Shown one piece after another: positions 1,556 to 62,242 of a DNA stretch of 64,000 bases. Source of the stretch: Candidatus Peribacteria bacterium RIFOXYB1_FULL_54_35. Lineage in GTDB: Bacteria; Patescibacteriota; Gracilibacteria; Peribacterales; Peribacteraceae. The notes under the pieces were generated by a model that searched no databases, was not told the DNA's origin, and saw only the letters and a program-made list of their open reading frames with translations. Position 1 is the stretch's first letter; each line of letters begins with the position of its first letter. The translations under genes were made by a program, and so were the position numbers. The DNA is taken from positions 946 to 64,945 of the forward strand of contig MFYJ01000001.1 of NCBI GenBank assembly GCA_001787755.1, read 5' to 3'.

Positions 1556-1696
1556 GCCCCACTTCGCTTTGCTGCGCAAAGCTCCGCGGGGCACACTTCG
1601 CACTTTCGTAACTGGAGATGGCGCGCCACACAACTTCGCCTGCGGCTACGCGGTGTACCACGCGAAGCTCTTCGTATAGCGAAGAGCGAAGTGTGG
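1556..1696. repeat. cluster of three REP-like palindromes (CGDAG-hairpin-CGAAG core)
   Basis: 1556-1593 gccccacttcgctttgctgcgcaaagctccgcggggca; ~1629-1656 cttcgcctgcggctacg; 1657-1696 accacgcgaagctcttcgtatagcgaagagcgaagtgtgg. Confidence 0.75.
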
Positions 1697-1778
1697 TGGG
1701 CCGGGAGGGATTCGAACCCCCGAAGGCAAGGCCACCTGATTTACAGTCAGGCCCGTTTGACCACTTCGGTACCGACCC
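1694..1778 (-). tRNA. tRNA-Tyr (GTA)
   Basis: Reverse complement folds as a cloverleaf: acceptor GGGTCGG/CCGGCCC, anticodon arm CCTGA-CTGTAAA-TCAGG, long variable arm, GGTTCGAATCC, encoded CCA. Confidence 0.97.
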
Positions 1779-1867
1779 ACGTAAGCGAAAGAATCAGTGC
1801 CAATAGTGCAGAGAAGCACCATTTGACTGTTGGAGTGTACTTCCCACTCCCCTAGAATTCAATCCAC

Positions 1868-2737
1868 ATGTTCTACCTTCTTGCTGTGAGCTCCATGCTC
1901 GGCTACGCGCTCCAGAACGCACTCCTCGTGCGATATGCACGGCGTATGGACGGGCTGAGCCTGGCCTTCTACCGGAATATCTCCTTCCTCGTCACCCTCC
2001 TTCCACTCCTCTTCCTCTCTTCACCGCAGGAAATTGCCGAAGTACTCTCACACTGGAAAGTGCTCCTCATCTCCGGCATTGCCGGAGGGGTGTACCTTGC
2101 CATCGTCTTCGAGTCCTATCACTTCATTGCCATTGGTGTAGGCCACACTATCAAACAAGCAGCCATCAACATCCTCATGGCCCTCGCAGGTCTCCTGCTC
2201 TACGAAGAAGTGCTCCCTGCAATGGAATTCCTCCTCGTTGCGGTTGTCGTCCTTTCCTGCATCTGGCTTTCTATGCAGCGGGTGGATGCACCCCACATCT
2301 CGCAGAAACTCCTCCTTGGCATCTCGCTCTCTCTCCTCTCTGCTTTTCCCGTCATCATCACAAAAATCATCCTCACAGATATGAGCCGTGCAGTTGATCC
2401 TCTCGCAAGCGGCTACTTCTGGGAAGCGGCAATAGGCATTGCATCTGCCGTGACCATCCTGCTGCGATGGGTGCTCCTCCGGAGGGGACTGACACGCATC
2501 GACTCGCGTACCATGCTCGGCATCACTGCCGCGGCCTCCCCTACTCTCATCGGAACAGGATGTTATGCACTCGCTCTGAGCATGGGGCCCATCGCCATCG
2601 TGAGCGCCATAGGAAGCGGATCACTGATTGTCACGGCTCTCTGTGGCTGGCTCTGGTACCACGAGAAACTGAGCCGTTCCCAGTGGGCAGCGCTCGTGTT
2701 CATACTGGTGGCAATTGCGTGGCTGAAATTTGTGTAA
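1868..2737 (+). CDS. EamA/DMT family transporter
   Basis: 289 aa, ~10 hydrophobic segments, two-repeat DMT pattern ending in W-Y-H-E-K-L. Confidence 0.8.
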   Translation: MFYLLAVSSMLGYALQNALLVRYARRMDGLSLAFYRNISFLVTLLPLLFLSSPQEIAEVLSHWKVLLISGIAGGVYLAIVFESYHFIAIGVGHTIKQAAINILMALAGLLLYEEVLPAMEFLLVAVVVLSCIWLSMQRVDAPHISQKLLLGISLSLLSAFPVIITKIILTDMSRAVDPLASGYFWEAAIGIASAVTILLRWVLLRRGLTRIDSRTMLGITAAASPTLIGTGCYALALSMGPIAIVSAIGSGSLIVTALCGWLWYHEKLSRSQWAALVFILVAIAWLKFV

Positions 2738-2791
2738 GCGAGTAGCGGTTAGCGTGTAGCGACTAGCCGCTAATCGCTAATCGCAAGCCGT
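2735..2791. repeat. 7-nt periodic intergenic palindrome between convergent genes
   Basis: gtagcgg ttagcgt gtagcga ... ccgctaa tcgctaa tcgcaag. Confidence 0.7.
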
Positions 2792-2792
2792 T

Positions 2793-4010
2793 CTATTTAT
2801 CCCACCGTATCGCCTCCATGGGACTTAAGCTCGCAGCTTTCTTCGCAGGGACAATGCCGAAGAGGAGACCTGTCCCGAGCGCCATGAGCACTGCTGCAAG
2901 TAAAGCTGGGAAAGAGAGAACAAAGGGAACATACCCGATATACTTACTCGCTGCTGCAGCAAGGATCATTCCAAGTGTCATCCCCCCAATGATGCCGATA
3001 CTCCCGCCAACAAGCGTGAGCGTTACAGCCTCTATGAGGAACTGGAGCAGAATGTCGTGGCCACGTGCACCCACAGCCTTGCGCAACCCGATCTCCCTCG
3101 TCCGCTCCGCTACGGAGACAAGCATGATATTCATAATGCCGATGCCGCCGACGAGAAGAGAAACCCCGGCAATGAGCGCAATGAACACCGTGAGCCCGAG
3201 CGTGACCTGACCGACAATCTTCGTCGCTTGCTCAGCGGAACGGGCACGGAAATCATCTTTATCGTAGTCGTTCTCAGGATTGTCTATGCCATGGCGCTGG
3301 CGCAGAAGCAACGTGACGTCTGCAAGTGCAAGTTCGTCATCCTCTACCGCCTGCATCGTCATGTAGCTCAGCTCCTTCTGTCCTGTTGCAGAGCGCGCAG
3401 TGGTAAATGGAACAAAGACAAAGGTATCGAGATCCTGCATGAGAGCAGAACCTACACTCTGCATCACACCCACCACAGTATAGGAGCGACTCCCTATCTG
3501 CACGCGTTCACCGAGCGGACTTCTTTGGCCAAAGAGATCCTCCGCTGCCTCATACCCAAGCACTGTCACAGATCTCGCCGCTTTTTCATCGGCTTCGGAA
3601 AGGAGTCTCCCCTCCCCCAATTTGAGCCCATAGTTCGCAAAAAAGTTGGATGTCGTCCCGAATATATTTGGCGATAACTCTTCCGTTCCATACTGCACTT
3701 TCTCAGTAATAAATATTACCGGCGCAACACTCTTTACAGTGGTGAGCCCGGTTATCGCCTCGTAATCGCCGTAGGTCACGCTATCGAGCGTGCGGCCGAA
3801 TTTCTCGTAGCCTGTTGGATAGAGCTCAATGAGGTTGTTGCTGAACGATTCGACCTGATCGAGAATATAGCGCTCAAAGCTGCGCCCAACGGAGACCATG
3901 AGCACCACGGAACCGACTCCTATGATGATGCCGAGCATCGTGAGGAGTGATCGCATTCTGTGAGCGACAATTGCCCTGTGAGCCGTTTGGATGGTGTCGC
4001 GAAGGAGCAT
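2793..4010 (-). CDS. MacB-family ABC transporter permease
   Basis: RSLLTMLGIIIGV and GGIGIMNIMLVSVAERTREIGLRKAVGA motifs. Confidence 0.95.
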   Translation of the reverse strand: MLLRDTIQTAHRAIVAHRMRSLLTMLGIIIGVGSVVLMVSVGRSFERYILDQVESFSNNLIELYPTGYEKFGRTLDSVTYGDYEAITGLTTVKSVAPVIFITEKVQYGTEELSPNIFGTTSNFFANYGLKLGEGRLLSEADEKAARSVTVLGYEAAEDLFGQRSPLGERVQIGSRSYTVVGVMQSVGSALMQDLDTFVFVPFTTARSATGQKELSYMTMQAVEDDELALADVTLLLRQRHGIDNPENDYDKDDFRARSAEQATKIVGQVTLGLTVFIALIAGVSLLVGGIGIMNIMLVSVAERTREIGLRKAVGARGHDILLQFLIEAVTLTLVGGSIGIIGGMTLGMILAAAASKYIGYVPFVLSFPALLAAVLMALGTGLLFGIVPAKKAASLSPMEAIRWDK

Positions 4011-5239
4011 TATTCGTACCGGAGTGCGTTCATGGGAGAGAGCTTGGAAGCCTGTCTTGCCGGGTAGATGCCAAACACAAGCCCTGTGAGAATCGCCATG
4101 GCGAGAGCAAGCCCAATGGCAGGAACCGAAAGCGCAAAGTCATAACTCTCGAGGTATTTGTCCACAATCAATGCTGCCAGACCGGCGAGGCCGACACCGA
4201 AGACAACACCAGCGATGCCGGCAAACAGGGTGAGGAGAATCGCTTCGAAGAGGAACTGGAGAAGAATATCCCTCCCTCGTGCTCCCACGGCCTTCCGGAG
4301 GCCTATCTCACGGGTACGCTCGGTCACCGCAACCAGCATGATGTTCATGATGCCGATGCCGCCGACGACCAGAGAGATGCCCGCAATAGTGGTAATGAAC
4401 AGTGTGAGACCCAATGACACCGCACCAAGAATATCATTCGCTTGCTGCGACGTGCGGACGATAAAGTCGTCTTCGTCCGTATCTCCTTCCGGGTTCACAA
4501 TGCCATGCCTCTGGCGAAGCAGGGACTCCACATCTGCTTGCGCGAGATCAAAATCTCCCACTGCCTGGAGTGTGATGACATTCACATGCTTCTGACCCGT
4601 TACGGCACGTCCCGTGGTGAGCGGAATGAAAACAAACTCATCCGCATTCTGGAAGAACTGCGTCCCAACCGGTTCCAGTACCCCCACCACGGTATACTGC
4701 AGATCTCCCAGCCTTACCTGCTTGCCGACCGGATCTTCCAGCCCAAAGAGATCATCTGCGATATCGGAACCGAGTACCACAACGTGCCGCGCGCGCATGA
4801 TGTCCCGTTCTTCCAGAACACGGCCGACTGCAACCGGCATCTCACGGTTCTGAAAATACGGCGGCGTCGTTGCAATGACACGGGGTTGCGTCTTCTCTCT
4901 GCCATAGACAGCGGTGGGGATATCCACAAAAATCGCCGGCGCAACACTCGTGATGGTTGTGAGCCGTTCCAACGCCTCGACATCATCAAATGTAAGGCTG
5001 TCGAACCCCGCGGCGAGCGTGCTTTCCACTCCTTCTTTCTGCCCAGGGAACACCACCATGCTCTGCGCACCTATGGAGCTGATCTGACTGAGTATGAGCA
5101 CCTCCATACTTGCACCGACCGCTGTCATGAGTACCACGGAACTCACACCGATGATGACCCCAAGCATCGTGAGCATAGAACGTTTCCTGTTGACGCCGAT
5201 CGCTCTACGGGCCGTCGCGAATGTGTCTGTGATGAACAT
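4010..5239 (-). CDS. MacB-family ABC transporter permease (paralog)
   Basis: Same MacB/FtsX motifs (GGIGIMNIMLVAVTERTREIGLRKAVGA). Confidence 0.95.
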   Translation of the reverse strand: MFITDTFATARRAIGVNRKRSMLTMLGVIIGVSSVVLMTAVGASMEVLILSQISSIGAQSMVVFPGQKEGVESTLAAGFDSLTFDDVEALERLTTITSVAPAIFVDIPTAVYGREKTQPRVIATTPPYFQNREMPVAVGRVLEERDIMRARHVVVLGSDIADDLFGLEDPVGKQVRLGDLQYTVVGVLEPVGTQFFQNADEFVFIPLTTGRAVTGQKHVNVITLQAVGDFDLAQADVESLLRQRHGIVNPEGDTDEDDFIVRTSQQANDILGAVSLGLTLFITTIAGISLVVGGIGIMNIMLVAVTERTREIGLRKAVGARGRDILLQFLFEAILLTLFAGIAGVVFGVGLAGLAALIVDKYLESYDFALSVPAIGLALAMAILTGLVFGIYPARQASKLSPMNALRYE

Positions 5240-5241
5240 GG

Positions 5242-5982
5242 CTACTTGAGGTGTTTCACATTCTTGGCGTGGTTCCTCTTGAAATCACGCGTGTCGGTCG
5301 CAATGCGCCCATCAAGAATGTGAATGACGCGCTCGGCATACTCTGCAGTCGTCTTTTCATGCGTGACGAGAACGATGGTTCTCCCCTGCTTGCTGTGGAG
5401 ATTTTGCAGGACCTCCATCACCTGAATGCCGGAGGCGCTGTCCAAGTTTCCCGTCGGTTCATCCGCGAAGATGACATCCGGCTCGGTGACGAGTGAACGG
5501 GCAATGGCTGTGCGCTGCTGCTGGCCGCCGGAGAGCTGGTTGGTGAAGTAGGTGGCGCGCTCTGTGAGACCGACTTGCTCAATGGCTTTCATCCCTCTCT
5601 CCGTGCGCTCAGATGCAGGAATGGTCGGGTGATAGAGCAGTGGAAGAATGACGTTATCCAACACAGTCGTGCGGGGGAGCAGGTTGAATGCCTGGAATAC
5701 GAAACTCACGCGCGTCGCGCGGATGCGGGCAAGCTCGTCATCGTGGAGCACACGCGTCTTCTGGCCGCGGAAGAGGTACGAACCGGAAGTGGGAGTATCC
5801 AGGAATCCGAGAATGTGCATGAGCGTGGATTTGCCCGATCCGGAAGGCCCCATGATGGAAATGAACTCTCCCTCGCGGATCGTGAGATCAATGTCAAAGA
5901 GCACCGGCGTTTCCATCCCATCATTGAAGTACGACTTGCAGAGATCAACAGTCTCGATCAGCGGTGGATTCTGCTTTGCCAT
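5242..5982 (-). CDS. ABC transporter ATP-binding protein (MacB/LolD type)
   Basis: Walker [10 protein letters not shown], signature [17 protein letters not shown]. Likely start MAKQ at 5982. Confidence 0.95.
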
Positions 5983-6019
5983 AGGTTGAGACTGAATGAT
6001 AAATTGAAAATTCCATTTC

Positions 6020-7777: not shown

Positions 7778-7894
7778 TATCTTCCAGGGAATACTTCTGA
7801 TGAGAGTGAGAGAATTCTTCAGGTTGCGTTGAAATGGGAATGTTTAGGTATACTAAATCATTCTATTTTACCACAAAACAAATATCCCATCAAT

Positions 7895-12513: not shown

Positions 12514-15510
12514 TCACTCTGAAAGTGGTGTAAAATCGAGCGCAGTAATCTTCCCCCACACTGTCTTCACAAGCTCCCTCAGTTCCTGCACTTCTGCATC
12601 CGTGATCTCCAGACTTATCTCCCTTCTCGCCTGGTCTTCCTTCCCAATATAATCGAGTGTAAAGAGTGTGGCTTCGTGCATGAACTTCGGGTCTGCATCG
12701 CAGAGCATTTTGTAGAACACAAGCTGGCGGAATATATTTTTTTTCTTCCGCACAGCTTCCTCTGTACGGCATGTGTTGCCTGTTTTATAGTCCAACACCC
12801 TGCAGATTCTTCCGTTTGGCTCGAAGAGATCTATACGGTCGACCTTCCCCTTAATGGGAACATCATCCACCACCGCATGAAGTGTTCTCTCGGCAGAGAG
12901 AATCATTGGAATACCGGAAGAAGTCTGCTCTCCGTATCTCCTGACTATTTCGCTCCCCTCCCGCAAATACTGCTCTCTCTCCTCTCTGGTTAAAATCTCC
13001 CTGTCCAAGTACTTCTGGAACGCAGAAACGAGTTCCTCTACAGAGAACTTCCTCCCTTCCTGCCAGGCAAGATTCCTATCTTCTAAGGCACCATGCACTG
13101 CAGTACCGAAAGCCATTTGAGGCTTTTTTTCGCTAGGACGCTGGAGCAGCTGCTCCCATAGAAACTGGTGGGGACCATTATCTTCATCGAGAAAAGCATT
13201 GAGGGCAGTGACCGAGAGTTCGTAGTCTTTGAGTCGCTCATCCAAAAATGCGCGGAAGGCAGTATCTATGGGCAACGGTGGTTTGCGGAGGGTCTCTATG
13301 GGGGTTGGAACATCTTTACCCTGTAGAACAGTTTCCTCTAGCTTCTCTCCGGCCTCCGCCACAAATGTACTAACCTGTGCATCCTGCATCTTCTCACCGG
13401 ACCGATACGTCTCTGGGAAAGTGAGAATGAGCTGCTTACGAGCACGCGTCATCGCTACGAAGAAGAGCCTGCGTTCATCTTCCTGTCCAGCCCGCCTTTC
13501 CACCTCTTTGTCGATATTGAAAATAAGGTGGTCTGGGAGGGCGAGTGTTGTCCTATTGCCGCTATCTCCCCAGTTCTTAAACCAGATATTGGCCATGACA
13601 ACCACATCGAACTCCAGCCCCTTGGCTCCGTGCGCGGTCATGAGCTGTACGCCATCCTGCACGAGGTGCGGAAGGTCGTACTCCAGTTTAAGCTTTGGTT
13701 CGCTGAGGTACTGGTCTATATCTGAGAGGAGATTGCGTAGTGTGAGTGTTTTTACTTCGTAACATCTGCTTTTCACGTACTCATAAAACACATGCAGCCC
13801 CGCAATACCTCTGGGATCAGCCTCTGTGTCTTCAATATCCGGAAGGAGTTTTGCACCCGTAAGAGCTTCTGCCACAACTGCAGTAAGAGTTTTATTCGGC
13901 ATTTCGCTATTCATTTTTGTGATGAATTCATGCGCACTCCGTATGGCTTCTGAAGAAGGTTCCTCTGTGAGAAGGTATTCGTGGAGTGAGAGCCTGTCGC
14001 CTTCTCTATTCCTGCTACGGAAGTTCATCCACAGCCTGCCTAAATCTGCAGGAGAGCAGCCGAAGCAAGGGAGCGCCAGGGCGGCAGAGAGCGCACTGGA
14101 TACCGCAGGCTCTGCGACAGCACGGAGTAGACTCACGGCTTCAAGTACCTGAGGATGCCGCACAAGATCCTGCTTGGCAGTGACCACGGCAGGAATACCC
14201 GCGGAAGTGAGAACATCGGAAATATCCAGTACCTCTTCATTCCTTCTGCATATCAGCGCCATTTCCTTCCAGGGAACTCCCTGCTCTTTCGCTTTACGAA
14301 GAAATTGGACAATGCCTGCGTACTCCGTACTTGTATCTGGGAAGCGTACAAACCGCGGCTTCACGCCCTTCTCCTTCTTTGTGGAAACAAGATACTTTTC
14401 TACGCCTCCAATTTTTCCCGCCAAGCGCTCCTCATTGACTGCTATCACCTCGGAAGCGGCATCGAGTATGGGCTGGAATGAACGGTAGTTTTTCGTAAGT
14501 GTAATGACTGCAGTACTGGGAAAACGCTCGAGAAATGAGAACATATTGCCGATGTTTGCCCCTTGGAACCGGAAAATAGCCTGATCGTCATCTCCAACAA
14601 CAAAGATATTCGGCTGCAAATCCGAATGCACGAACGTAGTGAGAAGATCCAGCACCCTGTTCTGCGCGCCGTTTAAGTCCTGGAATTCATCCACAAGTAT
14701 GTACTGGTACCGCTCCTGCAGAGAACTCAGCAGCCAGTCGTTCTCCTTGAGCGCCTGTAGCGTAACCAGAATCATGTCATCGTAGTCGTAACGATGGCTC
14801 TCCTGCAGTACTTTCCCATACTCCTCGTAGACCGCAATAAACTCCTTCAACTGCTCAACCCTTCGCAGATCCTTCTTATACGCATCAGATGAAAGATCGC
14901 GCTCGCGCCCGGCGGGAGTTTTTTTAATTTCCTGTGCGTAGGGCACTACATGTTTCTTCAGCTCCGCAGGTGAAATTCCTTCTTTCTTCATTTTTGTTAT
15001 CCGATCCAACACGTCTGCCGCCCTATCTTGCTCTGCAACCGGATTGTAGAGGGTAGAAGTAGAGCCAAGTGCCTTTATCGCGTTGCGCACAATCTGCAGT
15101 TGCTCGATAGCACTTACTTGTTCCTGCACCCGAAAATCCACAAAAATGTGCGGGTACTGCTGAATGAGATCGTTACAAAAGCTGTGAATGGTGCTCACCG
15201 TAATACCGTATGCGTCGGGCCCTATGATGCTTCGCAGTCGCTCCCGCATCTCCTTTGTGCCCGAAGTTGTGTAGGTAAGGCAGAGAATGTTCCCAGGGCG
15301 CATTTGCGTTTTTTTGAGAATGTATGCCACTCTCATACCCAGTACCTCTGTCTTCCCCGTTCCAGGTCCGGCAACAACCATCACCGGACCCTCAATCGTC
15401 TCCACAGCAAGTTTCTGAGCGTCGTTGAGCTCTGCGAAACGGCTCTCAAACACACCCTCATTTTGCTTCCGCTTCTTCGCCGTCGACCTGGTCTTGAGAG
15501 ACTGCTTCAC
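12514..15510 (-). CDS. UvrD/PcrA-family helicase with C-terminal PD-(D/E)XK nuclease (AddA/AdnA-like)
   Basis: AGPGTGKT, VDEFQD, VGDDDQAIFRFQGA, TAHGAKGLEF, C-terminal GKVDRID...LDYKTG...QL. Confidence 0.93.
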   Translation of the reverse strand: MKQSLKTRSTAKKRKQNEGVFESRFAELNDAQKLAVETIEGPVMVVAGPGTGKTEVLGMRVAYILKKTQMRPGNILCLTYTTSGTKEMRERLRSIIGPDAYGITVSTIHSFCNDLIQQYPHIFVDFRVQEQVSAIEQLQIVRNAIKALGSTSTLYNPVAEQDRAADVLDRITKMKKEGISPAELKKHVVPYAQEIKKTPAGRERDLSSDAYKKDLRRVEQLKEFIAVYEEYGKVLQESHRYDYDDMILVTLQALKENDWLLSSLQERYQYILVDEFQDLNGAQNRVLDLLTTFVHSDLQPNIFVVGDDDQAIFRFQGANIGNMFSFLERFPSTAVITLTKNYRSFQPILDAASEVIAVNEERLAGKIGGVEKYLVSTKKEKGVKPRFVRFPDTSTEYAGIVQFLRKAKEQGVPWKEMALICRRNEEVLDISDVLTSAGIPAVVTAKQDLVRHPQVLEAVSLLRAVAEPAVSSALSAALALPCFGCSPADLGRLWMNFRSRNREGDRLSLHEYLLTEEPSSEAIRSAHEFITKMNSEMPNKTLTAVVAEALTGAKLLPDIEDTEADPRGIAGLHVFYEYVKSRCYEVKTLTLRNLLSDIDQYLSEPKLKLEYDLPHLVQDGVQLMTAHGAKGLEFDVVVMANIWFKNWGDSGNRTTLALPDHLIFNIDKEVERRAGQEDERRLFFVAMTRARKQLILTFPETYRSGEKMQDAQVSTFVAEAGEKLEETVLQGKDVPTPIETLRKPPLPIDTAFRAFLDERLKDYELSVTALNAFLDEDNGPHQFLWEQLLQRPSEKKPQMAFGTAVHGALEDRNLAWQEGRKFSVEELVSAFQKYLDREILTREEREQYLREGSEIVRRYGEQTSSGIPMILSAERTLHAVVDDVPIKGKVDRIDLFEPNGRICRVLDYKTGNTCRTEEAVRKKKNIFRQLVFYKMLCDADPKFMHEATLFTLDYIGKEDQARREISLEITDAEVQELRELVKTVWGKITALDFTPLSE

Positions 15511-15525
15511 AGCCGCATGCTATCA

Positions 15526-15604
15526 CCAGCCTTCGCCCCGCGCACGCGGGGCTACCTGTCCGCCGTAGTCCGCTGCAAGTGGACGGAGGTGGATGGCCGG
15601 CGAG
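15526..15604. repeat. two nested REP-like palindromes
   Basis: Inner 15555-15593 cctgtccgccgtagtccgctgcaagtggacggaggtgga interrupts outer ccagccttcgccccgcgcacgcggggcta|tggccggcgag. Confidence 0.75.
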
Positions 15605-20912: not shown

Positions 20913-22403
20913 TTACACAACATCTTGCAGGTGATAGATCATCCAGCGGGGAAGGTGGTTTTTGAGCATTCCGTTGCGTGCGCGCCCCCGCCCGATACAC
21001 CAGCCACGGTAGCGGATGAGCACATGCCCGAGGAGCGATGCGTCACATGAAATATCCTGCCCCTGCAGCAAGTGCTGCAACTGTTCTTCTTGAATGACGC
21101 AGACATTCTCCGTTGCCTCACCTCCGCGCAGCACAGCCATCTCATGGTCAATGTACACCGGAATATCCCTGAGCCTCTTTCCGAATGGAAGCCCAAGGCA
21201 GTAGTCCGCAACCGGAAGCTTCAACCTCGCTACCTCCTCTGTCGTTATAGCCAAATGGTCCCCTCTGTCGAAAAGCTGCTCTCCACCACGGATGATGTCT
21301 GTTCCGTACCGCGTCCTGAGAAACTGGGCAATCTCCTGCTGCTGCCCCCGAGGGAGCGGCTTCTCGCGGAAATGCTTGAGTTCCATTTTTTCTGCCTCAC
21401 GTGTGGGTGCTGTTTTCTCCAGCACCGCACAGAAGAACCCCTCGGTGTCGTACGTCTGCGGCCAGATGCGCAAGAAAGGATAGGCGGTTTGCCCTGCAGA
21501 TTGGAGGGAATGCTGCACTGCAATCGAGTCTCGAACGGCGGCATCGAATGCCACTTTCCCTTGATTTACAGCCAATTCTCTTGGATCGACAACCTTAAGT
21601 TGATCACTAAATTTGTTCAATATGCTCAGCACCACTTCCTCGTTCTCCTCGGGAGTGAGCGTGCACGTGGAATACACAATGCGACCGCCAATGGCTGCCG
21701 CATGCACTGCAGACTCTAAAAGCTCCCGCTGGAGCTTGGCTGCCTTGCGAATGCCGAGTTCCGAGCAGTATTTGAGCGCGTTCGAATCTTTCCTGCAGGT
21801 ACCCTGCGCAGTACAGGGTGCATCGATGAGTACGCGGTCGAAGCGGCCCGTCATGTACCTGGCAAACCACTGCCCCATCCTCTTGGTCAGAATGACATTC
21901 ATCACCCCGCTGCGCTGGAGCGCGGACTTCAGGGTTTGGATACGGGCATCCTGTACATCATTGGCAACGATCACTCCCCTGCCCACCGAAGCTCCATGAG
22001 GAGCGGAGGCGGGCCTCCCCTGCATGGCAGCTGCAATCTGTGAAGTTTTGCTCCCCGGTGCAGCGGCCATGTCGAGAATGATTTCTCCCGGTTCCGGCTG
22101 CAGGAGCCCGACAGGCAACATGCTGCTCGCTTCCTGGAAGTAGAAATGCCCGAGAAGATGCAGAAGATCTTTCCCAAGGGGAACAGACCGGTCATCACGG
22201 TCAACGAAGAACCCTTCAGTACACCATGGGACAGGCTGCAGTTTCCACCCCTTCTCCTCTGCCCACCGCTTCAACTCCTCTGCGGAGGAAAGGATGGTAT
22301 TGCTGCGCACGCACCTGCGCAGCGGCTTGCTGCTGTACTCTCTCAGTGTGGAGAGATCAGTGAAGCCGGCATAGCGATCGAAGGGATGGTCAGACACTGG
22401 CAA
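20913..22403 (-). CDS. rsmF: RsmF/NOL1/NOP2 rRNA m5C methyltransferase
   Basis: QEASSM, DMAAAPGSKT, DRVLIDAPC, VYSTCT, EGFF, C-terminal PUA-like region. Confidence 0.88.
   Translation of the reverse strand: MPVSDHPFDRYAGFTDLSTLREYSSKPLRRCVRSNTILSSAEELKRWAEEKGWKLQPVPWCTEGFFVDRDDRSVPLGKDLLHLLGHFYFQEASSMLPVGLLQPEPGEIILDMAAAPGSKTSQIAAAMQGRPASAPHGASVGRGVIVANDVQDARIQTLKSALQRSGVMNVILTKRMGQWFARYMTGRFDRVLIDAPCTAQGTCRKDSNALKYCSELGIRKAAKLQRELLESAVHAAAIGGRIVYSTCTLTPEENEEVVLSILNKFSDQLKVVDPRELAVNQGKVAFDAAVRDSIAVQHSLQSAGQTAYPFLRIWPQTYDTEGFFCAVLEKTAPTREAEKMELKHFREKPLPRGQQQEIAQFLRTRYGTDIIRGGEQLFDRGDHLAITTEEVARLKLPVADYCLGLPFGKRLRDIPVYIDHEMAVLRGGEATENVCVIQEEQLQHLLQGQDISCDASLLGHVLIRYRGWCIGRGRARNGMLKNHLPRWMIYHLQDVV
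21978..22013. repeat. 36-bp REP-like palindrome inserted in frame in rsmF
   Basis: cctgcccaccgaagctccatgaggagcggaggcggg followed by cct; encodes PASAPHGASVGR. Confidence 0.8.
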
Positions 22404-25529: not shown

Positions 25530-25580
25530 AGCGCAGATAGCGTAGCGAGAACCGCAACATTTTCCTACTGATACTCCTCC

Positions 25581-25700
25581 GCGTTTAAAAGGGTTATCAA
25601 TGGGTTACAGATACATGGCAGGAGTTCTTGGCTCAGGTAAACGCTACGGGGTACGAGAGGAGGTAGTATCTGGTTCTCTGAATAGCTGCCTTTTAAGCGC
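25581..25700 (+). ncRNA. candidate structured ncRNA (long irregular hairpin)
   Basis: gcgtttaaaagg/ccttttaagcgc, gttat/atagc, cagatac/gtatctg, tcttg/cgaga. G-U pairs form only on the + strand. Confidence 0.4.
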
Positions 25701-30908: not shown

Positions 30909-30960
30909 CCTTCGACAGGCTCCAGCCTCCGCGCTTCGTGCTTCGGCCGACAGGCAGGGT
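30908..30960. repeat. nested REP-like palindromes
   Basis: cccttcgacaggct|ccagcctccgcgcttcgtgcttcggccgacagg|cagggt. Confidence 0.75.
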
Positions 30961-40484: not shown

Positions 40485-40505
40485 TGGCGAGCTTAGCTCA
40501 GTTGG
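40485..40505 (+). repeat. duplicate of tRNA-His 5' end
   Basis: tggcgagcttagctcagttgg identical to 40579-40599. Confidence 0.9.
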
Positions 40506-40579
40506 CCTAGTCCCGCGCAGCGGGACGTGATAAAAAGAGGCCGCTCGGTGAAAATCGCCACAATCTCTTTCACACTTAT

Positions 40580-40657
40580 GGCGAGCTTAGCTCAGTTGGT
40601 TAGAGCGGATGGTTGTGGTCCATCAGGTCAAGGGTTCGATCCCCTTAGCTCGCCCCA
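40580..40657 (+). tRNA. tRNA-His (GTG)
   Basis: G-1:C73, acceptor GCGAGCT/AGCTCGC, anticodon arm GATGG-TTGTGGT-CCATC, T arm AAGGG-TTCGATC-CCCTT, CCA. Confidence 0.97.
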
Positions 40658-41082
40658 TCCGTCTTCGCGGTGTGAGGGCTACGAAGTTCCGTTCGTTGTT
40701 CCCGTAATGATCATAGCGATACCGCTTCGACGCGATTGGGGCTTGTGTTATAGTTCGACACTATGCATTACGTCTACATTCTCGAGTCTGCACTCGATGG
40801 CAGGCACTGGTACATCGGCGTAACAAGCAACCTACAGAAACGCCTGGAAGAACATAATGCGGGTGATTCTCTGCACACGAACAAATTCAAACCATGGAAA
40901 CTGAAGAGCTACACAGCCTTTACTACACGAGAACAAGCTGAAAAATTTGAGCGGTACCTGAAATCCAATTCAGGACGCGTGTTCGCAAAAAGGCACTTGT
41001 GAGCCGCGGCGTAGCGGTATCGCAAAGCTGGACCCAAGAATGATGGCATACGCATCAAATGCCCTCACGCCGCGAAGCCGGG
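40658..41082 (+). mobile_element. GIY-YIG cassette bounded by nested inverted repeats
   Basis: Outer IR 40658-40679/41061-41082 (19/22); inner IR 40716-40734/41005-41023 (17/19); flanked by 21-bp direct repeats. Confidence 0.7.
40763..41002 (+). CDS. small GIY-YIG nuclease (UPF0213/SLX1-like), 79 aa
   Basis: MHYVYIL...WYIGVT.NL.KRL.EHN.G...FERYLKS; extended -10 TGtTATAGT 8 nt upstream. Confidence 0.93.
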   Translation: MHYVYILESALDGRHWYIGVTSNLQKRLEEHNAGDSLHTNKFKPWKLKSYTAFTTREQAEKFERYLKSNSGRVFAKRHL

Positions 41083-41103
41083 CGATCCCCTTAGCTCGCC
41101 CCA
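41083..41103 (+). repeat. duplicate of tRNA-His 3' end
   Basis: cgatccccttagctcgcccca identical to 40637-40657. Confidence 0.92.
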
Positions 41104-41165
41104 GTCACTCTCAATGTAAATTTTACTTGTGGTGCACTCATCCATCACTATAATGCACCAAACTC

Positions 41166-55946: not shown

Positions 55947-56081
55947 AGAAAGGAATCCTACGGAAGCATATGCAGCTCAACGAAGCCATTTTTTGTTTCT
56001 AAAACTATAATTCCGGGCTTTGGCTTGCGCAGGATGCCGTATTTACCCAAACAGATATTTGTGCTATAATAATAGCAAGAA

Positions 56082-56468
56082 TTGGAAAAAGGATACATCC
56101 TTGTCGCTGAGGACGACCCTGTACTGCGGGAAGTCTACGTGAAGAAGTTCTCCATTGCGGGATACAAAATCCACACAGCGAATAACGGCGAAGAAACACT
56201 CACCGCCATAGAGCAGGAAACGCCAGATCTCCTCCTCTTGGACATCAACATGCCTGTCATGGATGGATTTTCCGTACTGGAGAAATTCCCCAAGGAAGAG
56301 CGAACGTTCCCCATCATTCTGCTCACAAACTTCGGCGACGACAAGAACAGAGCCCGCGGAGAGGAGCTGGGGGCAGACGATTACTTCATCAAGAGCCAAA
56401 TGACCATGCGCAAGCTCCTCGAAATGGTGGATGATCTCATGAAAGCGAGACGGTACTGGAATAAGTGA
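56082..56468 (+). CDS. single-domain response regulator (tandem paralog)
   Basis: ILVAEDD, LLLLDINMP..DG, LTN, K. Confidence 0.9.
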   Translation: MEKGYILVAEDDPVLREVYVKKFSIAGYKIHTANNGEETLTAIEQETPDLLLLDINMPVMDGFSVLEKFPKEERTFPIILLTNFGDDKNRARGEELGADDYFIKSQMTMRKLLEMVDDLMKARRYWNK

Positions 56469-56469
56469 G

Positions 56470-56630
56470 CAGTAGATAGCTTCGGCAGCTTAGTAGCTTC
56501 TCTAGCTCGTTAGGTTTATAGCTGCATTAGCTTCATTAGGGATTTGGACTTTGGATTTGCGATTTTGGGACTCACTAACAGTGCTAATGAAGCTAAAGAA
56601 GCTAATAAAGCTGAAAGCTGCCAGCTATCT
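56470..56630. repeat. 8-9-nt periodic (tagct-based) long inverted repeat
   Basis: agatagct...tagcttcattag ... ctaatgaagcta...agctatct. Confidence 0.75.
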
Positions 56631-56662
56631 CTGGCGCATTTTTCATGATAGAATGGTAAGAT

Positions 56663-59158
56663 ATGCCCACCTTGAACCAGCTATTCCTGGGCCTCGGCTC
56701 TGCTGCATCTGTCTTCATCGGCGTGCATGTCGTGCTGTGGCTGTGCCGGCTTCTCGCGGATTTCCGCCGTGAACGCGACCTCGTCTTCCTCCAGATTCTT
56801 GTCCCGAAAAAGGAAAGCAAAGAAGAGAAAGAAACGGAATCCGAACGCTACTCCTCCGGCCAGGACTTCCGTGAGGTGCTGGGGGTCATGGATCACTTCT
56901 ACCAATCGCTCCACAGTCTGTACCACGGAACTGCAAGGCGGTGGTGGAGGGGGCAACCCTTCATCTCCTTTGAGTATGCTGCACTGCAAGGCGAAATCCT
57001 CTTTTTCGTCGTCTGCCCGCGGGCCATTGTCCACTTGATAGAAAAACAAATCACCTCCTTCTATCCCGATACCATCATCGACGAAGTGGAGGACTACAAC
57101 ATTTTCACAGACAAATCCATCGTTGCGGCACGGACACTCATCCCGCGAGGACCATTCACGAAAATATTCAAAACATATCAGCAGCTTAAGAGTGATCCTC
57201 TGAGCACCATGACAAACGCCTTCTCGAAGCTGAAAGAAACTGAGGGGGCCGCCGTGCAGTTCGTCCTCCGCCCAGCCAAATCCGGCTGGCAGAAAAAACT
57301 GCAGAAAGAAGCCCAGAACCTTTTGAATCCCAAGAAGAAAAAAGGGCTCAGATGGTGGAATCCCATTTCCTGGCTCAGCACCGGCTTCAGTCTCCTCACC
57401 ACAGGAGATGATGTGGTAGATCTGCAATCTGAGAGCAAAGCAACGGGCGAGCGCGTGTCTCAGATGGTAGAGGAATACAGTAAAACTGTGGATGAGAAGG
57501 CAAGCAGCCCCGGTTTCACAGCAATGGTCCGTGTCGTCACCTCCGCAGATACTCTCCTCCGTGCACAGAACCTCCTCCAGGAAGTCTGTGCCGCATTCAC
57601 GCAATTCAGCGACATACGCGGGAACCGCCTCAGGAGATCGAAGCTCTCCAGCAAGAGAAACACCACCATCAGATTCATCCGGCGTTCCCCCCGACTGGGC
57701 ATTCCTGCGGGTATCACAAGCCCCGTGATGCTCCTGGGAGCCCCTGAGCTCACAAGTTTCTTCCACTTCCCCAACATCAAGTACAACAAAGTAGAAACCA
57801 TTAAATGGCAGAACTTCAAGGTGGCACCAGCACCCAAGAACATACCAACAGAGGGCTTGTTCCTTGGAACAAACACCTACCGGGGAGAGAAACGCAAGAT
57901 ATACATGGGCAACGAAGACCGCTTCAGGCATTTCTACATCATAGGGCAGACCGGCACGGGGAAATCTTCGATCATCCAGCTCATGGCACGCCAGGACTTC
58001 CATAACAATATTGGCTGCTGTGTGGTGGATCCGCACGGGTCACTCATTGAGGATCTGCTGCCGTACATTCCGCGCGAACGCGCCGACGACGTGGTGTATT
58101 TCAATCCCGCAGACACGGAAAGACCCATGGGACTCAACCTGCTGGAGGCGGAGACTCCGGAAGAGAAAGACCTTGTCGCACTCGATGCCATGAACATGAT
58201 GGTGAAGATGTTCGGGGAAGAAATTTTCGGTCCGCGTATCCAGGACTACTTCCGCAACGGGTGTCTGACACTCATGGATGATGAGGATGAAGGCGGCGCC
58301 ATCACCGACCTCGTGAAACTCTTCACGGACGAAGAGTGGCAGCGGTACAAAGTATCGAAAGTGAAAAACCCCATTGTCCGCGCATTCTGGGAAAAACAGA
58401 TGGTCCAGACCGGACAGCGTGAGAAGCAGGAAATGATCCCCTACTTCGCAGCGAAGTTCGGCCAGTTCTACACCAATACGCTCATCCGGAACATCGTGGG
58501 GCAAACACGCAGTGCCTTCGATATCTCCAAGTGTATGAATGAGGGCAAGATCCTGCTCATGAACCTGAGTAAAGGACTTGTTGGAGATATCAACGCCCAG
58601 CTCCTCGGTTTGATCATCGTGAGTAAAATACAGGTCGCAGCCATGCGCAGACAGCGGCAGACAAATGAGCAGCGCCGCGACTTCTACCTCTACATCGACG
58701 AGTTCCAGAACTTCGTAACCCCTTCCATTGAGTCCATTCTCTCCGAAGCCCGCAAGTACCGCCTTGGCCTCATCCTCGCCCACCAGTACATCGATCAGCT
58801 GGAAAAAGAGAGCAAGATCTCCGGCAATATCAGCCTGAAGGGCGCAGTCTTCGGCAATGTGGGCACGATGATGTTCTACAAGATCGGTCCGCAGGACGCC
58901 GAAGTATGTGCGAAGGAAATGGCTCCGGTCTTCTCCGAACAGGACCTCATTAACATCGATGCTTTCAAAGGAGCCATGAAACTGAGCGTGGAGGGCCAAC
59001 CTTCCAGACCGTTCTCCATAGAGGTACCACGCCCCTGGCTCGACAAAACGTACCCCAAAGACGAGCAGGCAGCCGAGGCGTTCAAACAGCTCTCCCGCCT
59101 GACGTACGGCCGCGCGAAAGACTTCGTGGATAGGGAGATAATGAGGAGAATCGGGTAG
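56663..59158 (+). CDS. VirB4/VirD4(TraD)-like P-loop ATPase (paralog of 30982-33603)
   Basis: HFYIIGQTGTGKS, DPHGSL, LYIDEFQNF, SEARKY. Confidence 0.88.
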   Translation: MPTLNQLFLGLGSAASVFIGVHVVLWLCRLLADFRRERDLVFLQILVPKKESKEEKETESERYSSGQDFREVLGVMDHFYQSLHSLYHGTARRWWRGQPFISFEYAALQGEILFFVVCPRAIVHLIEKQITSFYPDTIIDEVEDYNIFTDKSIVAARTLIPRGPFTKIFKTYQQLKSDPLSTMTNAFSKLKETEGAAVQFVLRPAKSGWQKKLQKEAQNLLNPKKKKGLRWWNPISWLSTGFSLLTTGDDVVDLQSESKATGERVSQMVEEYSKTVDEKASSPGFTAMVRVVTSADTLLRAQNLLQEVCAAFTQFSDIRGNRLRRSKLSSKRNTTIRFIRRSPRLGIPAGITSPVMLLGAPELTSFFHFPNIKYNKVETIKWQNFKVAPAPKNIPTEGLFLGTNTYRGEKRKIYMGNEDRFRHFYIIGQTGTGKSSIIQLMARQDFHNNIGCCVVDPHGSLIEDLLPYIPRERADDVVYFNPADTERPMGLNLLEAETPEEKDLVALDAMNMMVKMFGEEIFGPRIQDYFRNGCLTLMDDEDEGGAITDLVKLFTDEEWQRYKVSKVKNPIVRAFWEKQMVQTGQREKQEMIPYFAAKFGQFYTNTLIRNIVGQTRSAFDISKCMNEGKILLMNLSKGLVGDINAQLLGLIIVSKIQVAAMRRQRQTNEQRRDFYLYIDEFQNFVTPSIESILSEARKYRLGLILAHQYIDQLEKESKISGNISLKGAVFGNVGTMMFYKIGPQDAEVCAKEMAPVFSEQDLINIDAFKGAMKLSVEGQPSRPFSIEVPRPWLDKTYPKDEQAAEAFKQLSRLTYGRAKDFVDREIMRRIG

Positions 59159-59164
59159 ATCATA

Positions 59165-59242
59165 AGAGAGAGTAATAGGGAATAGAGTACTAGGATAATG
59201 AGGCCCTATGTGTGGGGCCTATTACTCAATTCCCTATTATTC
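59165..59242. repeat. 8-nt periodic palindrome between convergent genes
   Basis: gagtaatag...ggccc-tatgtgt-ggggcc...tattactc; shares units with 48100-48177. Confidence 0.7.
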
Positions 59243-60478
59243 TTACCTCAGAGCAACTGTCTCTATCGGTTTCGCATGCACAAGATAGCGCTGCGCGATG
59301 GAATCCGGCGGCCAGCAGGTGTAGAGAATGAGCTCCTCCCCTTCACCATCGTCATTGAAAGGATCTGTATCTTTCGCATCGATTGTTTCCTCGTAGGTTA
59401 CTTCGTAGGTGTGCAGCTTCCCCTCGTACGTCACGTAAATCCTGTCCCCGGCTTTGAGCTGATTCACCTTGCGGAATATCTTGGTGTACTTCGAGACATC
59501 CCACGGATACCCACTGGAGTGACCATAGATCATGATCTTGCCACCCGCACCGGGATAGCTAAAGAGGTGCCCCACGCCGTCTTTGAGCGCAGCGAGAACA
59601 CCCTGAGAAGAAAGCGGATCTATGGGATGTGTGATGGTGAGGTCCGTAACCCCGAGACTCGGCATAGTAATGGCAAAATACTTCTCTGACGCATACGGAA
59701 GCGTGCCCGCCTGTACGGTCGGTTGGGGCTGATTGATGACCTGAATAGTCTGCGGCTGCGGGAGGCTGATTGAGCGCGAGGAACTCGCCCCCTGGCTCTG
59801 GGTTCCCTGGGACACAGTTCTTCCATCGTTGAAAACAAGAACACCCGCCTCGCGAACATACATCATACGGTAGACCATCTCGAAGAACTGGCCGCGCGTA
59901 ATCGGCTGACCAAGCCGCAGGGACTGCTGCTCCTGCAACACCGCATTGCGCAGAATTGCAGCGTTGATCGAGGACGTGTACCACTGCCCGGGAAAGTTCT
60001 GAATGGCAGCAGAAAGTCTCGCGAATTCTGTTTCTCCCGCTTCCCCGAATGACCGCGAGAGAAGAACCACCGCTTCCTCCACCGTGAGCAACTGCCCCGG
60101 CCGCAGGGTTCCCTCCGGATACCCTTTCACCACTTCTGCTTCGAACGCAGCCTCCACAAACGGGGCAAACCACTGACTCTGCTGTACATCGGAAAAGAGA
60201 GGTAACGGCGGCATGTTCTCCTGGTACCACAGAACACGCTGCGCATACTTCTCCTGGGTGATCATGAGTACTTTGATCGCCTCTGCCCTGTTAAGAAACT
60301 TCTGGGGTCTCGCGAGTCCATCACTGTACCCCCGGAGTATCCCCTTCCCCGAGAGGTACACAAATGCGTCGCTGTAGAGCGTCTGGTCAGTATCGGGGAA
60401 ACCAGCAGCGAATGCCCGTGTTCCGAAGCCCACGAGTAACACTGCCGCCAGCAGAAGGAGTAGCCTTTTATACTGCAT
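59243..60478 (-). CDS. SLH-domain sortase
   Basis: Signal peptide, SLH repeats (GILRGYSDG, VVKGYPEG), sortase motifs IYGHSS, ILYTCWP, QRYLV. Confidence 0.88.
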   Translation of the reverse strand: MQYKRLLLLLAAVLLVGFGTRAFAAGFPDTDQTLYSDAFVYLSGKGILRGYSDGLARPQKFLNRAEAIKVLMITQEKYAQRVLWYQENMPPLPLFSDVQQSQWFAPFVEAAFEAEVVKGYPEGTLRPGQLLTVEEAVVLLSRSFGEAGETEFARLSAAIQNFPGQWYTSSINAAILRNAVLQEQQSLRLGQPITRGQFFEMVYRMMYVREAGVLVFNDGRTVSQGTQSQGASSSRSISLPQPQTIQVINQPQPTVQAGTLPYASEKYFAITMPSLGVTDLTITHPIDPLSSQGVLAALKDGVGHLFSYPGAGGKIMIYGHSSGYPWDVSKYTKIFRKVNQLKAGDRIYVTYEGKLHTYEVTYEETIDAKDTDPFNDDGEGEELILYTCWPPDSIAQRYLVHAKPIETVALR

Positions 60479-60623
60479 ACAAGGGAGCTAATCTAATGAT
60501 TTTTCGCTTTTTTGTCAAGCACTCTTAGGATCTCTCCTGTGCCAAATCCCATTGCAAATCGTCAATTCATGGCACTTTTGAGCTCCTATCGACGAGGCAT
60601 GGTGAAACACTTACGATGCAGGC

Positions 60624-62171
60624 ATGTTTTGCCCTCTCAAACGGCCTGTTCTCACATACCTGCCCACTCTCACCCTCTGCGGATGCCTCCTCCTCTTCGG
60701 AACGTTCCTGAGCAGTCTCGCACATCCTACGTCCCTCGGAGATGGCATACGGCACCTCACTCTCGCCCGTCTCCTGCAGGAAGGGAACTCGTTCGGAGGC
60801 TGGGGCGATGTTCTGTACTCAGGATACTTCAGCACACGGTCCTCTGATCCGTGGTTCCTCACGCACGTGCTGCTCATGCCTCTCGGCACTCTGGATATCG
60901 CGATTGCGGAGGACATGCTGATCCTGCTGCTCATTGGTGCGGTAGGCATCACCTTCCTTCTCTTCCTCAGAACCCTCCGCCTCTCCCCCGCTTCCCAGAG
61001 CATTCTTATCGCACTCCTCCTCCTCGGACACGTGCAATTTACGTTCCGCCTCCTCGTCGGCCGTCCGCTCTTCCTGATGGTCGCCCTCACCACGCTCACG
61101 CTGCTCACCGTCCTCCATAAACAACCATTGCTTCTCCTGGTACTCATGACCATAGCAACACTCCTCTCGCACCTCTTCGTGTTCCCGTTATTCATCTGCC
61201 TTCTGGGATCTCTCTGGCTCCTCTCACTCTCAAGAAAACGCACAGCCATGCTCACATTCCTCAGCGCACTCTCCGGCCTCGTGATTGGTCTTCTCCTCCA
61301 TCCCCAGACAAGCAATTTTGTCCATTATGTTTTCACCATCTTCCTCAGAGTACCTTTCCTCACTGAGCTCGATACGGGCACAGAGATGCATTCGGGTATA
61401 GGGCGCATGGCAGCTGTTCTCACACTCCTCGGTGCCTGCCTCCTCTTCGCATATCATCTGTGGTACACACGCCGCGCCTCCTGGAAGGAAATGCACAGGC
61501 GAGGACTCAGTCTGACAGCCAGCATTGTTCTGGTGATGACACTCGGCATGCTCCTCTGGGTGCGCATGCTCGACTTCCTCTGGCCGCTCCTCCTCATTCT
61601 CCTCGCACAGGTACTGAGCCTGTACCCACCCATTGCCAAAGAAACAGCACATGTTCTCCTGCCCCGATGGGCGCTGCTCAGAAAATACACACTGGGAGTG
61701 CTCCTCCTCGTGCTCACCGTGAACACCGCTAAGACCTTCTATAGTTTCTCCACAGTCAATGCAGAAAACGCGCTCAGCCACTTCACAGATCCGCTGAAGA
61801 ACATTCCAGAGAAATCACGCGTGCTGAATGTGGACTGGGATCTCTTTCCTTCCCTCTTCAGCGCACGACCGGATCTCCTCTATGCGCGCGGAATGGACCC
61901 CTCGTACGACTACCTCTCCGATCCGGATTCCATTCGCTTCTTCGCTGCAGTACGAAATCCATCTGAAGAAACGGACTGGAATGTCTGGCTCACGGAGCTG
62001 ATTCAACACATCCCTTCTGACTACCTTGCTCTCTGGAGAGCGGAAAAACGCAGGAACATGATCGAAACACTCAACCAGAACAAATCCCTCGAGCATGTTG
62101 GCATGAGCGACCGCATTATCGTGTATAAAATCCTTCCTTCCACCGAGCAGTCCGCTCAGGATTCCGTATAA
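60624..62171 (+). CDS. multi-pass membrane protein, possibly GT-C-type glycosyltransferase
   Basis: ~12 TM segments, D..RH in first loop, RP motif, soluble C-terminal domain. Confidence 0.6.
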   Translation: MFCPLKRPVLTYLPTLTLCGCLLLFGTFLSSLAHPTSLGDGIRHLTLARLLQEGNSFGGWGDVLYSGYFSTRSSDPWFLTHVLLMPLGTLDIAIAEDMLILLLIGAVGITFLLFLRTLRLSPASQSILIALLLLGHVQFTFRLLVGRPLFLMVALTTLTLLTVLHKQPLLLLVLMTIATLLSHLFVFPLFICLLGSLWLLSLSRKRTAMLTFLSALSGLVIGLLLHPQTSNFVHYVFTIFLRVPFLTELDTGTEMHSGIGRMAAVLTLLGACLLFAYHLWYTRRASWKEMHRRGLSLTASIVLVMTLGMLLWVRMLDFLWPLLLILLAQVLSLYPPIAKETAHVLLPRWALLRKYTLGVLLLVLTVNTAKTFYSFSTVNAENALSHFTDPLKNIPEKSRVLNVDWDLFPSLFSARPDLLYARGMDPSYDYLSDPDSIRFFAAVRNPSEETDWNVWLTELIQHIPSDYLALWRAEKRRNMIETLNQNKSLEHVGMSDRIIVYKILPSTEQSAQDSV

Positions 62172-62201
62172 TCTGCGAAGTGGCACTCCAAATAGGCATC
62201 A

Positions 62202-62242
62202 CCTACCTTCGCCCCGCATCCGCGGGGACTTCGGTGGGCAAG
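62202..62242. repeat. REP-like palindrome
   Basis: cctaccttcgccccgcatccgcggggacttcggtgggcaag; shares cttcggtgggca with the reverse complement of the rsmF insert. Confidence 0.75.

Follow-up and report, generated by a model that had tools for sequence, protein, structure and literature searches.

A REP-like family of small hairpins with a conserved purine-rich internal loop in a Peribacteria genome

A family of short dispersed hairpins was studied in Candidatus Peribacteria bacterium RIFOXYB1_FULL_54_35. The window, i.e., the whole stretch of DNA analyzed, covers 64,000 nt of contig MFYJ01000001.1 (C1:946-64945), and the genome under study (G000) has 1.56 Mb in 16 contigs, with 54% G+C and 97.9% completeness. 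The hairpin family is real, structured, and mobile, and chance is excluded as its source. With a probability of about 0.75, it is a non-autonomous mobile DNA element similar to repetitive extragenic palindromes (REPs). For REPs and other small repeats, the usual association is with a REP-associated tyrosine transposase (RAYT). It is unusual that this family persists, and at least sometimes moves, in genomes with no RAYT/IS200 gene.

Structure and abundance of the hairpin family

The unit is 33-45 nt long. It is composed of a short unpaired 5' tail, (A)CYTG, one arm of a 5-6-bp outer stem, the pentamer CGWAG, a variable inner hairpin of 7-25 nt, the pentamer CGRAG, and the other outer arm. The two pentamers place GWA opposite GRA in a symmetric 3x3 internal loop. 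A purine loop of this kind would form flanking sheared G.A pairs. Exact CGWAG and CGRAG were present at the expected offsets in 44 of 60 copies. The 5' pentamer was CGTAG in 29 and CGAAG in 19 of these 60, and the 3' pentamer was CGAAG in 43 and CGGAG in 12.

A covariance model, R1, was built from ten family copies of equal length, as the preliminary description had proposed. In 42 model-aligned copies, 94.4% of stem cells were paired, versus 72.4 ± 1.3% after shuffling and 37-43% when the partner was slid by 1-3 columns; the alignment was fitted to the model, which biases it toward pairing. Both sides had changed in 10 of the 13 stem pairs. In folding as single-stranded DNA (ssDNA), five of six window copies took the two-stem shape with the 3x3 loop (z -1.7 to -6.2). 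The best window copy (15554..15598) formed the outer stem, the loop, and the inner hairpin at -8.1 kcal/mol (z -2.3), and its opposite strand was unfolded. The two good copies beside the tRNA-Tyr gene folded at -13.3 kcal/mol (1653..1701, z -6.2) and -12.6 kcal/mol (1552..1596, z -2.7). For the copy at 30917..30955, the minimum-energy ssDNA fold missed the short inner stem. The outer stem held 38 G.T against 7 A.C in copies chosen without counting G.T. Because of this excess, the strand with the purine loop appears favoured, as far as the outer stem is concerned. Covariation, the conserved loop, and the predicted folds support the earlier view of a structure-defined dispersed family, in which the inner stem varies and mostly stays complementary while the loop is kept.

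The R1 scan of the genome gave at least 57 matches at E ≤ 0.01, a lower bound in which 150 out of about 900 first-look candidates were scored. A plain pattern, i.e., CGWAG-N7-25-CGRAG with an inner stem of at least 3 and at least 4 of 6 outer pairs, matched 55 times genome-wide, whereas ten first-order Markov shuffles gave 0-6 matches each, with a mean of 2.1, so shuffled sequence did not match equally well. A REP family is recognized by many dispersed copies of a short palindromic hairpin, and this is what both searches gave. The copies occur singly or in same-strand tandem, e.g., C12:71256/71362/71456 and C11:192278/192373. Inverted REP doublets (REPINs) were not found as a unit among the copies. 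The lone overlapping head-to-head pair in the window has a partial second member (15521..15568), which consists of GTAG, a 7-bp hairpin, and CGAAG, without a proper 5' outer arm. The longest contig, C7, carried nine copies on the plus and nine on the minus strand, with no obvious strand bias.

A scan covering the taxonomic family detected the motif in 103 out of 121 genomes, which represent 74 out of 84 genera. The R1 counts in these genomes are likewise lower bounds and saturate, with 52-150 candidates scored per genome. The relatives have genomes of 0.7-2.1 Mb. The family is structure-defined and clade-wide among the sampled genera of these small-genome groundwater and soil bacteria. A literature search on REP, RAYT, and miniature transposable elements with inverted repeats (MITEs) in these bacteria found no description of such elements.

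Ten sites had been listed in the preliminary description. The letters of its four core copies were reproduced exactly and scored well with R1 (Table 1). Altogether, six sites were solid, one was weak, and one was very weak. The two sites flanking the GIY-YIG gene of the tRNA-His cassette, 40658 and 41003, were rejected as non-members, with R1 scores of about 2 bits at 40648-40686 and 41065-41087. Accordingly, it did not hold that five of about ten copies sit in the two GIY-YIG cassettes. No copy is present in the tRNA-His cassette, and the tRNA-Tyr cassette has three, of which two are good and one is weak.

Mobility and landing sites

The RsmB/F gene at 20913-22403 on the minus strand carries a family unit as an in-frame insert of 36 nt, i.e., 12 aa, with Pfam RsmB-F domains on both sides. 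The insert was missing in 9 of 11 orthologues of relatives, including that of the sister genome G003 (90% aa identity). The remaining two had different inserts in the same loop. The DNA alignment showed a clean 36-nt insertion, and a unit 97% identical to this copy was found elsewhere in G003. Since the insert is absent from 9 of 11 relatives, the event was polarized as a gain. At least this copy was gained in G000 after the split from G003. Copies are tolerated in frame inside genes, and it is unusual that a small repeat writes inserts of 11-13 residues into essential genes. The different inserts were observed in orthologues L060 (G006) and L064 (G017) as unrelated low-complexity stretches of about 15 and 24 residues, in the loop after AAPGSK. 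This surface loop is a tolerated landing place for different repeats.

Filled and empty sites were compared with G003 only, over nearly its whole genome (1.13 Mb), as G001 and G002 (approximately 70-79% DNA identity) were too diverged for intergenic alignment. Thirty-seven of the 60 copies could be placed, and 11 were at identical sites. The sites of the window copies 15554..15598 and 62197..62243 were occupied in both genomes. Seven clean presence/absence events of 33-42 nt were identified, three with the copy extra in G000 and four with the copy extra in G003 (Table 1). In three of the seven, the copy was nested inside the loop of another copy. No duplicated flank, i.e., the target-site duplication expected of a MITE of a DDE transposon, was found in any of the seven filled/empty pairs. 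The trinucleotide CTG was directly left of the insertion point in four of the seven events as aligned, one of them ambiguous. In addition, CTG was located within 2 nt upstream of 19 of 60 copies, where about three would be expected by chance (an estimate). A variant was also found in the population. Among contigs of four public runs, one X15 contig was identical to the window over 1,277 nt, apart from 32 extra letters at 25654, which are a family unit in reverse complement. Other contig ends near copies (22008, 25645) are compatible with repeats or polymorphism and no more than that.

The surroundings of tRNA genes are a preferred location, and their remodelling is a further unusual feature of the family. 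Of 60 copies, 16 were no more than 200 nt away from a tRNA gene; the genome has 45 such genes, and this zone covers 1.4% of it. Upstream of tRNAs, 12 copies were antisense and one was sense. In G003, 13 of 58 copies were near tRNAs, with eight antisense and none sense upstream; some of these sites are orthologous to those in G000. Seven upstream copies adjoin the reverse complement of a duplicated tRNA 5' fragment that ends in the D-arm. For the tRNA-His copy found in G003 only, insertion between CTG and AGCTA of the 5' fragment was shown directly. The antisense bias arises because the tRNA 5' fragment is the target. In several cassettes, a copy adjoins the CCA end of the tRNA and pairs with it; the outer 3' arm of the copy at 1653..1701 takes in the complement of the tRNA-Tyr CCA end. 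Copies adjoining the CCA end were also found at tRNA-Val and tRNA-Ala in G000, and at a tRNA-Ser in both G000 and G003.

Other arrangements were observed at tRNA genes. At least 8 of the 12 small GIY-YIG genes of G000 lie directly 3' of a tRNA CCA end. A decayed duplicate of the tRNA 3' part follows the GIY-YIG gene in at least four cassettes (tRNA-Tyr, -His, -Pro, and -Lys), and D-arm and T-arm remnants are still present in the tRNA-Lys cassette. The layout is repeated in G009 and G003. Its appearance is that of a homing cassette that targets tRNAs and supplies them with a replacement 3' half. Upstream of the window tRNA-His, at 40487-40580, a duplicate of the tRNA 5' end (acceptor and D-arm) is followed by a GC hairpin, GTGATAAA(A)AG, about 50 nt, and the intact tRNA. 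This leader with GTGATAAA was also observed upstream of C7:367345 and C14:111415 (twice), and downstream of C7:115619. It seems that a second type of small element rebuilds the leaders of tRNAs. A recurrent tRNA trailer was comprised of TTCGACTCG, a hairpin, and CTCGCTCATGG(C/T)AA(A/G)CCA, e.g., at C7:65210, C7:115619, C7:367421, C13:5798, and C12:211308. One such trailer in G003 holds a 77-nt nested insert.

Mechanism and rival explanations

The family works like a single-strand hairpin element of the REP or IS200-end type. The hairpin would form on one DNA strand, and its conserved loop would be read by a trans-acting enzyme. The unit might then be copied or moved via ssDNA, like REPs and IS200/IS605 ends. 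Units land in hairpin loops, often those of other copies, and in leftover D-arm pieces of tRNAs. Several observations weigh against this explanation. In two of six window copies, the complementary strand folds slightly better. The G.T excess is restricted to the outer stem (inner stem, 4 G.T versus 5 A.C), and it may come from master copies and not from selection. The ends of the RsmB/F insert can be placed only to within 3-6 nt, as the first bases of the unit recur in the target. That event alone was polarized by outgroups, and the other six could be precise deletions. The population variant is a single contig at a depth of 5. Finally, the mobilizing gene was not found, and no Y1/RAYT gene was detected in the 97.9% complete genome by PF01797 and NF047646.

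A functional RNA motif, e.g., a protein-binding internal loop with tandem G.A pairs, a stabilizer, or a terminator, is very improbable. The conserved purine loop, covarying stems, and outer-stem G.T excess would suit such a motif, as would the position of cassette copies in a tRNA trailer or a GIY-YIG leader. The family is not taken as an RNA gene because 12 of 13 upstream copies are antisense to the tRNA, the orientation to neighbouring genes is mixed (about 11 intergenic copies sense and 8 antisense, by hand tally), and Rfam 15 gave no match, with only the two tRNAs of the window at the gathering threshold and nothing relevant for 13 copies at E ≤ 1. Moreover, copies lie in long open reading frames (ORFs) in both orientations, the closest relatives differ in the presence of copies, and no T run follows the hairpin. 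Spread with no dedicated enzyme, by template switching, slippage, or short-patch gene conversion between hairpin-forming sequences, would agree with the 6 nt that the RsmB/F target has in common with the 5' end of the unit, with nesting in existing hairpin loops, and with the many unrelated small hairpin elements that are also polymorphic between G000 and G003. It is nevertheless quite unlikely. Microhomology is lacking at most junctions, and strict retention of the loop across 74 genera, with drifting stems, speaks for a protein that recognizes it. As to which protein, the preliminary description regarded the hairpin as the recognition site and non-autonomous partner of small stand-alone GIY-YIG nucleases. 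Nicking or cutting by these at the loop pentamers would drive the spread. That these nucleases, and not a tyrosine/HUH transposase, read the purine 3x3 loop on ssDNA and drive the spread is possible but doubtful. The copy-number correlation, a check that the preliminary description had itself proposed, stood in its favour. Across 121 genomes, with relatedness ignored and motif counts saturating, copy number was correlated better with GIY-YIG matches (rho 0.63) than with a four-helix-bundle cassette gene used as a control (0.47) or with RAYT (0.38). The partial rho for GIY-YIG was 0.56 with genome size and RAYT controlled for, and 0.50 with the control gene; part of the correlation is common to an unrelated cassette gene. 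Only 3 of 103 motif-holding genomes had one GIY-YIG match or fewer, whereas 12 of 18 motif-free genomes had at least three. G000 has small GIY-YIG genes and no RAYT/IS200 gene. A copy was located within 300 nt of 4 of 12 small GIY-YIG genes in G000 and 5 of 7 in G003, but 8 of 12 G000 cassettes lack a copy and approximately 90% of copies are far from any GIY-YIG gene. Copies adjoin the CCA end at a fixed cassette position at tRNA-Tyr, -Val, and -Ala in G000 and at tRNA-Ser in G003, but the same arrangement exists at a G000 tRNA-Ser without a GIY-YIG gene. Two genomes are direct counter-examples. G018, which is 100% complete, has 9-12 good copies and no small GIY-YIG gene, its lone GIY-YIG match being in a 645-aa UvrC-like frame. 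G009 has 14 small GIY-YIG genes, five beside tRNAs, with other AT-rich hairpins and no family copy. Precise insertion of 33-42 nt without target duplication is not a known product of GIY-YIG homing, and we know of no precedent in which a GIY-YIG nuclease moves a 35-nt unit in this way. Both loop pentamers fit CNNNG, given in the cited part of PMC12663268 as the cleavage motif of the I-TevI GIY-YIG domain; its information content is low, and the fit is a lead and not a test. By eye, CNNNG was also nearby at most empty target sites, but this was dropped since the motif is too short to mean anything.

The other enzyme considered is a RAYT transposase. The hairpins would then be an ordinary REP family, the gene having been recently lost from G000 and the copies being leftovers, which is unlikely. 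Directly 5' of the inner hairpin, a G(T/A)AG tag resembles that of REPs (GTAG in 29 copies out of 60, GAAG in 19); it lies inside the internal loop, opposite a second conserved purine triplet. For REPs, the cited passages of PMC3733652 describe tags of the GTAG type and G.T pairing within stems, and they also state that REPtrons can be lost by deletion. Insertion without target duplication, into loops and often after a fixed trinucleotide, would also fit a RAYT. The G003 RAYT exceeds the NCBIfam cut-off (88.2 versus 80 bits), and the orthologous site of G000 has a different small cassette. RAYT genes were found in 61 of the 103 genomes with the motif and in only 3 of the 18 without it (odds ratio 7.3). 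In G007, both flanks of one RAYT carry a palindrome that equals the motif tail and outer stem. This outer module is the exception, as the other 43 of 44 Y1/RAYT genes of relatives were not flanked by anything motif-like. Within approximately 1 kb of these 44 genes, R1 gave no convincing copy (best 18.5, 15.6, and 14.8 bits), and four of six RAYT loci viewed by eye were flanked by a different hairpin type, unrepeated in G000. This hairpin (GAGC-stem-loop-stem-GCGG) was rejected as a repeat family, with 14 random-looking matches each in G000 and G003. No RAYT was found in 42 of 103 motif-holding genomes, of which 16 had at least 10 copies and several are nearly closed assemblies. In G000, tblastn with the G003 RAYT gave a best E of 1.2 and no remnant, so the RAYT/IS200 gene elsewhere in the genome, against which the GIY-YIG proposal had been set, was not there. 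The RsmB/F copy gained in G000 after the split from G003, the singlets and tandems in place of inverted REPIN pairs, and the weakest of the three copy-number correlations also stand against leftovers of a lost RAYT. In G000, the family fails as a RAYT-REP family. What GIY-YIG nucleases, RAYT/HUH transposases, and an enzyme-free process leave, which is the largest share and still short of even odds, goes to some other mobilizing enzyme.

The REP-like mobile element is the preferred explanation. The family gives a concrete test of whether the abundant orphan GIY-YIG genes have a DNA partner, with a substrate of about 35 nt and a candidate protein of 78-79 aa. If the GIY-YIG proposal were true, a nuclease and a miniature hairpin would form a partnership parallel to RAYT-REPIN in which the enzyme has another fold, and the hairpins would be tied to the GIY-YIG cassettes that target tRNAs.

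Other small elements and comparison with known systems

Table 1. Positions of family copies, GIY-YIG genes, tRNA genes, cassettes, and presence/absence events (window positions unless a contig is given)
Feature	Position	Strand	Score or size	Context
Cassette copy	1552..1596	-	R1 29.0 bits	11 nt upstream of GIY-YIG start codon, sense; listed earlier as 1556
Weak degenerate copy	1624..1660	-	R1 17.4 bits, E 0.028 (67-kb search)	between both tRNA-Tyr cassette copies; listed earlier as 1629
Cassette copy	1653..1701	+	R1 30.6 bits	adjoins tRNA-Tyr 3' end, antisense to tRNA; listed earlier as 1657
Partial/variant copy	15521..15568	-	8.6 bits, filters off	overlaps 15554..15598 head-to-head; listed earlier as 15526
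Best window copy	15554..15598	+	R1 51.6 bits	upstream of UvrD-like helicase ORF 12514-15510 (-)
RsmB/F in-frame copy	21977..22018	+	R1 26.6 bits; 36 nt	antisense in gene 20913-22403 (-); extra in G000
Copy within another small repeat	30917..30955	-	R1 25.6 bits	between convergent ORFs
Intergenic copy	62197..62243	-	R1 26.3 bits	between ORFs 60624-62171 and 62284-63378
Stand-alone GIY-YIG gene	1305..1541	-	78 aa; PF01541, E 1.7e-16	tRNA-Tyr cassette; candidate partner
Stand-alone GIY-YIG gene	40763..41005	+	79 aa; PF01541, E 2.1e-17	tRNA-His cassette
tRNA-Tyr	1694..1778	-		ARAGORN, Rfam
tRNA-His	40581..40657	+		ARAGORN, Rfam; upstream 5'-fragment duplicate 40487-40506
Small GIY-YIG/tRNA cassettes	1277-1778, 40581-41104			window
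Small GIY-YIG/tRNA cassettes	C4:7579-8010, C7:63204-63640, C7:72903-73315, C7:237575-238030, C9:39528-40011, C11:157831-158258			other contigs
Copy extra in G000	C13:18928		33-mer	in frame
Copy extra in G000	C11:168958		33-mer	nested in loop of copy there
Copy extra in G003	upstream of window tRNA-His		39-mer	in tRNA-His 5' fragment (duplicate 40487-40506)
Copy extra in G003	copy C10:14303		33-mer	nested, opposite orientation
Copy extra in G003			33-mer	within another small repeat
Copy extra in G003	orthologue of C13:72727		~42 nt	nested copy

Other small elements were observed in the alignment of the congeners G000 and G003, which had 246 gaps of 20-90 nt. Many of these gaps are alignment noise, and many others are hairpin units of other families, e.g., CCCTGAGC...GTCGAAGGG and CACGCCTGCGT...GCAGGCACG. 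Several families of small mobile repeats coexist in the genome. An element approximately 150 nt long, which has terminal inverted repeats starting CTAGACACGGCG, was located just beyond the window end (C1:65330-65485) and also at C11:31691, 48286, and 113660 and C12:96686 and 137016, with shorter forms at C13:115492 and C14:31432. Its presence differs between G000 and G003, it has CTAG flanks, and some copies hold a nested hairpin block of 155 nt. In the window, an element approximately 140 nt long whose ends are inverted (TACTCCTCC ... GGAGGTAGTA) was found at 25560-25700 and was absent at the orthologous G003 site. A related element is present in G003 and absent from G000 on C7. The 32-letter family unit of the X15 contig lies within the 25560-25700 element.

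The site of the G003 RAYT was also compared (G000 C11:154370-155000, G003 C19:8248-8730). Downstream of the same gene, whose product ends ...QYRQSIEG and which may be ComM/Mg-chelatase-like, G003 has the RAYT gene, and G000 has a four-helix-bundle gene (23S rRNA IVP family) between short repeats of the TAGGG type. Small cassettes are swapped at this site. Within the RAYT frame on G003 C19 lies a perfect palindrome, approximately 30 nt long, that has CGTAG on both strands and codes for RSGRSRSSAT. In metagenome-assembled genomes, units of the hairpin family break assemblies and seed spurious low-complexity ORFs.

Among known systems, Rickettsia palindromic elements are 100-150 bp long, insert in frame in protein genes, and are tolerated in surface loops. 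The present family likewise has palindromic units in frame in protein genes, but the Rickettsia elements are longer, unrelated in sequence, and belong to another lineage. GIY-YIG homing endonucleases offer a likeness in location, i.e., SegB in the tRNA region of T4 (cited part of PMC2330249) and the small GIY-YIG genes here in tRNA-linked cassettes. Homing, however, moves the nuclease gene and its flanks by break repair and is not known to scatter a 35-nt hairpin. A physical analogy only is given by GCGNAGC DNA mini-hairpins, in which CGNAG with a sheared G.A pair is unusually stable according to the cited part of PMC13037366. Both loop strands of the family are CGNAG, but here the two strands face each other.

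The family also has features in common with REPs and IS200/IS605 elements. GTAG-tagged REPs and REPINs with RAYT, as described by Di Nocera et al. 2013 in the cited passages of PMC3733652, share tens of short GC-rich hairpins, an unpaired G(T/A)AG beside a stem, G.T stem pairs, some copies inside genes, and long persistence in a clade. The tag of the present family differs in being placed between two stems and mirrored by the second purine triplet. The family also differs from REP/RAYT systems in lacking a RAYT in G000 and in 42 of 103 carriers, in not flanking the RAYT genes of relatives, and in forming no inverted doublets. From IS200/IS605 elements, it differs in having no linked transposase, in being a single 35-nt hairpin and not two ends around a gene, and in following CTG in part of the cases. 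It resembles them (see also PMC6006769) in having ends that are defined by hairpins, in inserting 3' of a short fixed sequence with no target duplication, and in preferring ssDNA or loops.

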